Below are positions 40,201 to 40,780 of a stretch of 64,000 nucleotides of DNA, one piece after another (within the stretch, counting starts at the first letter, position 1; every line of letters starts with the position of its first letter). This DNA comes from a plasmid: assembly GCF_054482525.1 (NCBI RefSeq), contig NZ_JBTHVG010000007.1. One strand, given 5' to 3'. The notes beneath the pieces were generated by a model. It saw nothing but the letters and a program-made list of their open reading frames with translations. It had not been told where the DNA came from and did not search any database. Position numbers and translations under genes: made by a program.

Positions 40201-40479
40201 CACGGTATCTCCCTTGCTGCCGCCCCGTCTCCGGCGGGGCGGTGTGGTTGTTCATCAGGCGGCATCAGCCAGGTTATCGGTGCGTTCAGTGGCATCCGTC
40301 TGTGGGCGTGGTGCACACATCCAGCCTGGAACCCAGCGGTTGTCTTTCATATGGTGCTCTGCATGTTCAGCCGCATCACCTTTCTTCATCTTCTCCGCGT
40401 CCCGTGCGGCACCGGACAGCCCTGCCTTATTCAGGGCTGCGATAATCTGCGGCGGACGTTCGCGCGTCGGGCACCTCTC

Positions 40480-40713
40480 TTACTTAAGAATCCCGAAATC
40501 CCTGATGACATGGTTCATCCAGTACCCGGCACCGTCCTCAAAATTCCAGGTACGCCAGACTATTGCACCGTTATTACGGACAACCAGGCGAAACTGTTCG
40601 CCGTGGTCATCCTCGATAAAGACGTTCCGGTACTGTGCGGCAACAGCTTCGGCATGTTTGCGGGTAAAAGGACCGTCAGGCAGCCCCTGAAGTATTCTGA
40701 AATATTCGCTCAT
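40480..40713 (-). CDS. small hypothetical leading-region protein
   Basis: 77-aa C-terminal portion ([16 protein letters not shown]...) of a called 276-aa ORF; the upstream part of that ORF overlaps ssb and is discounted. Confidence 0.4.
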
Positions 40714-40780
40714 CCTCATCTCTCCGGTGATGCCCCGCACAGAACGGGGCGGGGCGGGGCGGTTATCACAGTCAGCCCGA

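Follow-up and report, generated by a model that had tools for sequence, protein, structure and literature searches.

Layout of the psiB-ssb interval

Does the short gap between psiB and ssb encode small leading-region proteins that had escaped annotation? A first-pass annotation, made from the sequence alone, described this gap as a compact spacer of about 580 bp holding two small unannotated ORFs, and proposed them as candidates for early-expressed proteins, possibly with anti-defense or anti-SOS functions. In the window, by which we mean the whole 64,000-nucleotide stretch of plasmid DNA that was analyzed, the gap is exactly 580 bp (40201-40780) and is flanked by psiB (39766-40200) and ssb (40781-41320), both on the minus strand, with limits that are the PGAP coordinates of a 100%-identical locus (L001). 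Both ORFs lie on the minus strand, in the orientation of ssb and psiB. The larger occupies 40480-40713, starts as first described, and encodes 77 aa; the second, at 40255-40389, starts MKKGDAAEHAEHHMKDNRWVPGW and encodes 44 aa rather than the 45 originally given. The features of the interval and its surroundings are listed below, with L002, L003, and L006 denoting the loci of plasmid pAR13438_1, the F plasmid, and a distant metagenomic plasmid contig, respectively.

39050-39769, minus strand: psiA (strong Pfam match)
39766-40200, minus strand: psiB, SOS inhibitor, downstream flank of the interval (Pfam PsiB, E 1.2e-62)
40201-40254, minus strand: native herB-psiB intergenic segment, identical in F, L002, and the window
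40255-40452, minus strand: herB/yfjB 3' remnant, the last 65 codons plus stop, corresponding to HerB residues 588-652
40255-40389, minus strand: 44-aa ORF, corresponding to HerB from internal Met609 to the native herB stop
40452/40453 (region 40450-40456), no strand assigned: deletion junction (blastn break and junction alignments)
40453-40479, minus strand: clipped residue of the yfjA-herB intergenic segment, with a degraded copy of the post-yfjA hairpin
40453-40479, no strand assigned: post-DUF905 hairpin, found by sequence comparison also at L002 7085-7125, L003 9480-9500, and L006 6228-6256
40480-40713, minus strand: yfjA (= yubL), DUF905/UPF0401, 77 aa (Pfam DUF905)
40714-40780, minus strand: ssb-yfjA intergenic segment with a GC hairpin, (CCCCG)x3, and a Shine-Dalgarno sequence (sequence comparison)
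40781-41320, minus strand: plasmid ssb, upstream flank of the interval (Pfam SSB, E 9.8e-38)
41342-41703, plus strand: Frpo2-like single-stranded DNA promoter element (94% identity to F at the Frpo2 position, 97% to Frpo1)

The whole 580 bp is accounted for by yfjA, the herB remnant, and three intergenic segments with hairpins or Shine-Dalgarno sequences. The segment upstream of psiB carries the psiB Shine-Dalgarno sequence, GGGAGA, and an 8-bp GC hairpin (40218-40244; RNA fold of -19.4 kcal/mol, z -1.86). Without a U-run after it in the mRNA, this hairpin does not qualify as an intrinsic terminator; the sole terminator-like call in the spacer fell on the antisense strand at this same hairpin, and the promoter/terminator scan returned no sigma-70-like promoter within the spacer. 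Likewise, an Rfam search found no family within the spacer, and plus-strand ORFs over it (177, 195, and 96 aa) had no family match. The ssb-yfjA segment carries the yfjA Shine-Dalgarno sequence, GGAGAG, and a 7-bp hairpin (overall z -0.1). Its CCCCG pentanucleotide, repeated three times on the mRNA strand at 40735-40752 and giving G-runs on the transferred strand, is single copy in F and pAR13438_1, pointing to a 10-bp slippage expansion beside the hairpin upstream of yfjA.

Identity and conservation of the 77-aa ORF

The 77-aa ORF matched the Pfam family DUF905 (PF06006) at an E value of 1.5e-31 and 108.7 bits (cutoff, 22.3) over profile positions 2 to 69 of 70, which places it in that family and well beyond a chance ORF. 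It is identical to YfjA of F at 76 of 77 residues, the single substitution being M51I, and on the ssb-yfjA side the window is collinear with F (L003 8263-9494), making the two genes orthologs by position. The F plasmid (NC_002483) has the order ssb, DUF905 gene, 652-aa ParB/RepB/Spo0J-family gene, psiB. The F protein (WP_000005990.1; UPF0401), named YubL in UniProt, is encoded downstream of Frpo2 in the same slot, with ssb on one side and herB/psiB on the other; the window differs in that a herB remnant rather than an intact herB follows yfjA and in that the post-yfjA hairpin has degenerated. A structure-solved relative exists as well: the ORF is homologous to YkfF of E. coli CP4-6 (NMR structure PDB 2HJJ; E 2e-19), whose α-β-β-β-α fold the 77-aa protein shares, so that a structure for a DUF905 member has been available since 2006. 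By homology and position, then, the 77-aa ORF is yfjA, an already known and annotated gene. The description of both ORFs as unannotated does not hold, given that records with identical sequence label them a DUF905 family protein (WP_000005987.1, assigned by PGAP in a 100%-identical public plasmid) and a ParB/RepB/Spo0J pseudogene; nor is the 77-aa ORF without assignable features, given its Pfam match and solved homolog.

The DUF905 family is small, with 134 representatives at E ≤ 1e-3 among 50%-identity clusters of 1.84 billion proteins. Conservation and synteny, the check proposed for both ORFs, favor the larger one: among IncF copies yfjA has a dN/dS of 0.17 to 0.45, indicating purifying selection, and the SSB-DUF905-PsiB order recurs in metagenomic plasmid contigs (L006 to L008) whose DUF905 protein is only 49% identical to that of the window. 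The 44-aa frame is kept elsewhere only within a 652-aa protein. In those contigs (L006 5628-6222; also L007 and L008) the end of ssb at its stop overlaps the DUF905 gene by 8 nt (ATGCGTAA), which suggests translational coupling, and a 648-aa HerB-like ParB_N gene lies upstream of ssb, not between the DUF905 gene and psiB. In a different element, the DUF905 gene is followed by Antirestrict and RadC genes. Two apparent SSB-DUF905 fusion proteins (P0154 and P0164) had partial SSB domains and look like read-through or gene-calling artefacts of neighboring genes; they were therefore excluded as evidence.

The 44-aa ORF as the tail of herB

Searches of the 44-aa ORF against Pfam, NCBIfam, and PADLOC returned no family match. 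Its origin emerged from a megablast search of the interval against PLSDB, in which, for most plasmids, the matches to a psiB-proximal 304 bp and an ssb-proximal 378 bp lay apart from each other, the former falling under a gene annotated as a "ParB/RepB/Spo0J family partition protein." In pAR13438_1 and F, an intact gene of 1,959 bp lies between the DUF905 gene and psiB. Translated onward from the yfjA stop, the window reads ERCPTRERP followed by PQIIAALNKAGLSGAARDAEKMKKGDAAEHAEHHMKDNRWVPGWMCAPRPQTDATERTDNLADAA and a stop; the 65 residues after ERCPTRERP are in the herB frame and match the C termini of the 652-aa ParB-like proteins of pAR13438_1 and F at 63 of 65 positions. At the nucleotide level the 198-nt remnant is 94 to 97% identical to the 3' end of herB, in frame, with the native stop and the hairpin downstream of it.

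What survives is a small part of HerB (also YfjB or ParB2; PMC13370423, PMC8406263). The window shares with it residues 588-652, the native stop, and the native herB-psiB intergenic segment, while the CTP-binding domain D1, the helix-turn-helix domain D2, D3, and most of D4 are absent. With only the last 65 codons left, the remnant has neither the N-terminal CTP-binding domain nor the helix-turn-helix of a ParB protein, and of the D4 dimerization module (residues 418-652) it retains only residues 588-652. The intact pAR13438_1 protein matches ParB families, and the remnant gives no Pfam or NCBIfam match. As the remnant has neither its own start codon nor its own ribosome-binding site, it is a pseudogene fragment, in line with PGAP/RefSeq, which in records with identical sequence calls it a ParB/RepB/Spo0J pseudogene ("incomplete; missing N-terminus"). 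On this alignment evidence the 44-aa ORF is not a gene but the tail of herB/yfjB, and its frame, although genuinely open, is so only as the in-frame 3' terminus of a larger gene now deleted.

Might the 44-aa ORF or the 65-codon remnant nonetheless have been kept after the deletion as a functional microprotein, translated from the ATG at 40389 or by ribosomes reading through the yfjA TAA? Beyond that TAA, the yfjA frame runs without a further stop into the remnant and on to the native end of herB, but the chance of such a coincidence is 1 in 3. A GGAG lies 3 nt upstream of the ATG at 40389, a spacing too short for a Shine-Dalgarno sequence. The remnant is essentially invariant across 368 plasmids; however, this invariance is that of a young, single-origin allele (at least 99% identity overall) and not of selection, and dN/dS of the remnant is uninformative about selection because almost all of its divergence predates the deletion. 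It does contain the predicted C-terminal tail helix of HerB (residues 635-652; PMC13370423), although as a fragment of a four-helix subdomain it would probably not fold. Neither a family nor a stand-alone homolog of the remnant was found, and the PGAP pseudogene label also weighs against a function. We therefore consider a retained microprotein highly improbable and treat the remnant as a pseudogene below. There is no case for pursuing the 44-aa ORF as a gene, and the reading of the region is corrected accordingly.

A deletion of about 1.8 kb

Relative to F, about 1.8 kb is absent from the window (L003 ~9501-11299). A blastn comparison breaks at window positions 40457/40453, equivalent to L003 9494/11299, and is collinear on both sides. 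In mRNA sense the junction joins GAACGTCCG to CCGCAGATTATC, and the microhomology there is 1 nt, a shared G. We considered a repeat-mediated deletion, given that CCGGCAG and CCGCAG form near-repeats at the breakpoints, but each copy survives in part, so the true microhomology is 1 nt. The missing segment took with it the herB ribosome-binding site, the start codon, and some 587 codons (1-587), and it left an untranslated stretch of 276 nt. Its start coincides exactly with the 3' foot of the post-yfjA hairpin, which it clips. In F, L002, and the distant L006, this hairpin has an invariant stem (GCCGGACG/CGTCCGGC) with variable loops; it is intact in L002 (-17.5 kcal/mol, z -4.1) and degraded in the window (z +0.5). 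The hairpin could act as an mRNA stabilizer, a processing site, or a structure in single-stranded DNA, and its clipping, together with the untranslated stretch, could retune the dosage of psiB and psiA.

The opposite polarity deserves consideration: a compact ssb-yfjA-psiB order might be ancestral, with herB inserted later in other IncF plasmids. The distant contigs L006 to L008, in which ssb, the DUF905 gene, and psiB are directly adjacent and the ParB_N gene lies upstream of ssb, would fit such a history. However, the window keeps an in-frame 198-nt 3' end of herB, with its native stop and downstream hairpin but no start codon, and the conserved post-yfjA hairpin is cut exactly at the junction. 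In PLSDB, moreover, about 3,000 records match one half of a junction probe, as expected for unjoined flanks, the intact gene having been checked and shown in F and pAR13438_1 only. Because of the in-frame remnant, later insertion of herB is refuted, and we regard it as next to impossible. As read from the junction and its flanks, the arrangement in the window arose by one illegitimate deletion event that removed about 1.8 kb. The spacer, which the first-pass annotation had called compact, is compact because of this deletion and not by design.

Leading-region context and probable early expression

Upstream of ssb-yfjA-(ΔherB)-psiB-psiA sits the Frpo2-like element, a second copy of which occurs at 37861-38073. 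Folded as single-stranded DNA, the element forms one long stem-loop (-106.7 kcal/mol, z -9.96). From the location of oriT near 33 kb and the orientation of the genes, the plus strand is the transferred and template strand. Gene order and orientation relative to oriT are those of the ssb-parB2-psiB-psiA cluster of IncF and IncI plasmids, which is driven by Frpo/ssi promoters; the window likewise has an Frpo2-like element that folds as single-stranded DNA, but parB2/herB is deleted. Altogether, we put a probability of roughly 0.93 on the reading that the interval is the middle of an Frpo2-driven leading-region operon, ssb-yfjA-herB-psiB-psiA, in a herB-deleted lineage of F-like (IncFIB/FIC, ColV-type) plasmids; no observation ran counter to the gene identities or the deletion.

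In F, a YfjA-sfGFP fusion was made early and transiently in transconjugants in an Frpo2-dependent manner (Couturier et al. 2023, PMC9849209; cited also in PMC12672017). The fusion was produced before conversion of single- to double-stranded DNA, peaked at about 5 min, and was off by 25 to 35 min; deletion of Frpo2 abolished its production and left transconjugant frequency unaffected (PMC9849209). By analogy with F, we infer transient, Frpo2-dependent production of YfjA in transconjugants of the window plasmid. As the plus strand enters the recipient, the Frpo2 region would fold into its long stem-loop and serve as a promoter; ssb, yfjA, psiB, and psiA would be transcribed and translated within minutes, and expression would stop once the DNA is double stranded. 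HerB would normally act at this stage as a CTP-dependent ParB-like clamp on the recipient nucleoid that lowers acquisition cost, and the window plasmid would make none. These steps come from published data on F, carried over by inference to the window plasmid. The earlier proposal of small, early leading-region proteins is thus borne out for the 77-aa ORF, through the sfGFP fusion of its F ortholog (PMC9849209), and fails for the 44-aa ORF, which is the herB tail.

The surrounding leading region departs from that of F in further ways. The window lacks the methylase, DUF1380, and antirestriction genes that F carries between sopC and Frpo2: window 41694-42648 is strongly reduced relative to L003 2516-8262, and the absent F segments (2516-6170 and 6530-8262) include genes for a DNA methylase, DUF1380, and antirestriction/KlcA-like proteins, among others. 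This loss leaves a distance of only about 400 bp between Frpo2 and sopB with the sopC repeats. The Frpo1 copy is also split, by an IS21-family element of 1,954 bp (35907-37860; istA at 36752-37774, istB at 35973-36755) with TGT...ACA ends and a 5-bp CCGGG duplication. This element sits inside the Frpo1-like promoter near the hairpin apex (flanks 35880-35906 and 37861-38161) and parts the promoter from ygeA and a DUF932 gene; neither PLSDB nor the complete E. coli genomes yielded its junction with Frpo1. In F, deletion of Frpo1 lowers transconjugant frequency to about 25% (PMC9849209). Between psiA and Frpo1 lies a hok/sok-type (flm) toxin-antitoxin locus (38612-38944), with a Hok-like ORF at 38612-38791 on the minus strand and an Rfam sok match at 38768-38944 (88.9 bits). 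Farther away, window 46267-54301 holds iutA/iucABCD-sized ORFs and looks like an aerobactin cluster, and 57570-61019 looks like a sitABCD-like cluster, both from ORF sizes and order alone. These putative clusters, together with the IncFIB/FIC typing of identical relatives, suggest a ColV-type virulence plasmid.

What YfjA might do

We can only speculate on the function of YfjA. Our search of the literature on DUF905, YubL, UPF0401, YkfF, and yfjA found no functional study; a Foldseek search of YfjA against BFVD returned no functionally named relative, and PADLOC and NCBIfam gave no YfjA/DUF905 match. A specifically anti-defense (anti-restriction or anti-CRISPR) or anti-SOS accessory role, as first proposed, has some circumstantial appeal, given that the leading region is rich in anti-defense genes (PMC11541004), that the neighbors of DUF905 are ssb and psiB on plasmids and Antirestrict and RadC genes on islands, and that the F ortholog is expressed early. 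However, YfjA resembles no characterized anti-defense protein or SOS inhibitor (ArdA, KlcA/ArdB, or PsiB-like) in sequence or structure, and no structural relative with such a function was found. Its charge, counted by hand from the sequence, is near neutral, so it is no DNA mimic. Loss of Frpo2 in F did not lower conjugation efficiency, and in pED208 SOS induction was raised only by deletions of ssb and psiB, in a tested set that did not include yfjA (PMC8406263). The proposal thus found no support in homologs or structural relatives, and we consider it unlikely. Our best guess is that YfjA, a small, near-neutral α-β3-α protein, may bind a host or plasmid protein acting on incoming DNA, alongside SSB and PsiB. 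What suggests this is how closely its gene is linked to ssb in plasmids and, in genomic islands, to antirestriction and RadC genes.

Spread of the herB deletion

We asked how widely the deletion is distributed, using a 120-bp probe spanning the junction. It was present at full length in 368 of 72,556 PLSDB plasmids, with ≥99% identity in 363, and this near-identity points to one origin. The carriers are mostly from E. coli (351), with 9 from Klebsiella, 6 from Shigella, and 1 each from Salmonella and an uncultured source; 347 of the 368 are predicted to be conjugative. Among complete E. coli genomes, the junction occurred in 393 of 5,426 (~7%). A herB-null allele has thus become common and spread between genera. 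One copy maps to a chromosome record of 4.87 Mb (E. coli UK_Dog_Liverpool; NZ_CP031653.1, 259723-259842), which suggests an integrated segment of an F-like plasmid.

A preprint of July 2026 (PMC13370423) gave the deleted gene, yfjB, the new name herB and describes HerB as a zygotically induced, ParB-like CTP-binding clamp that forms nucleoid foci and reprograms host transcription. Deleting herB from F left transfer frequency unchanged and made acquisition about 10% costlier; in repeated conjugation competition the mutant lost (PMC13370423). Its homolog in pED208, ParB2, is translocated through the T4SS, and its deletion alters neither transfer nor SOS induction (PMC8406263). The spread of the deletion deserves mention beside the advantage claimed for HerB, but since loss of herB leaves transfer frequency intact, it is unsurprising. 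The region is otherwise ordinary, both ORFs being covered by existing annotation and recent literature, and the natural herB knockout is its one notable point. Because a single-origin knockout is found in 368 PLSDB plasmids, in four genera, and in about 7% of E. coli genomes, loss of herB might be tolerated or even favored in this plasmid lineage, with the "host reprogramming" benefit of HerB being context dependent. We hold this last idea to be quite unlikely; if it were true, the benefit of HerB would depend on host background or on the vertical versus horizontal lifestyle of ColV-type plasmids. Either way, a precisely defined ΔherB allele in some 370 sequenced plasmids constitutes a natural experiment on the proposed role of HerB in acquisition cost.
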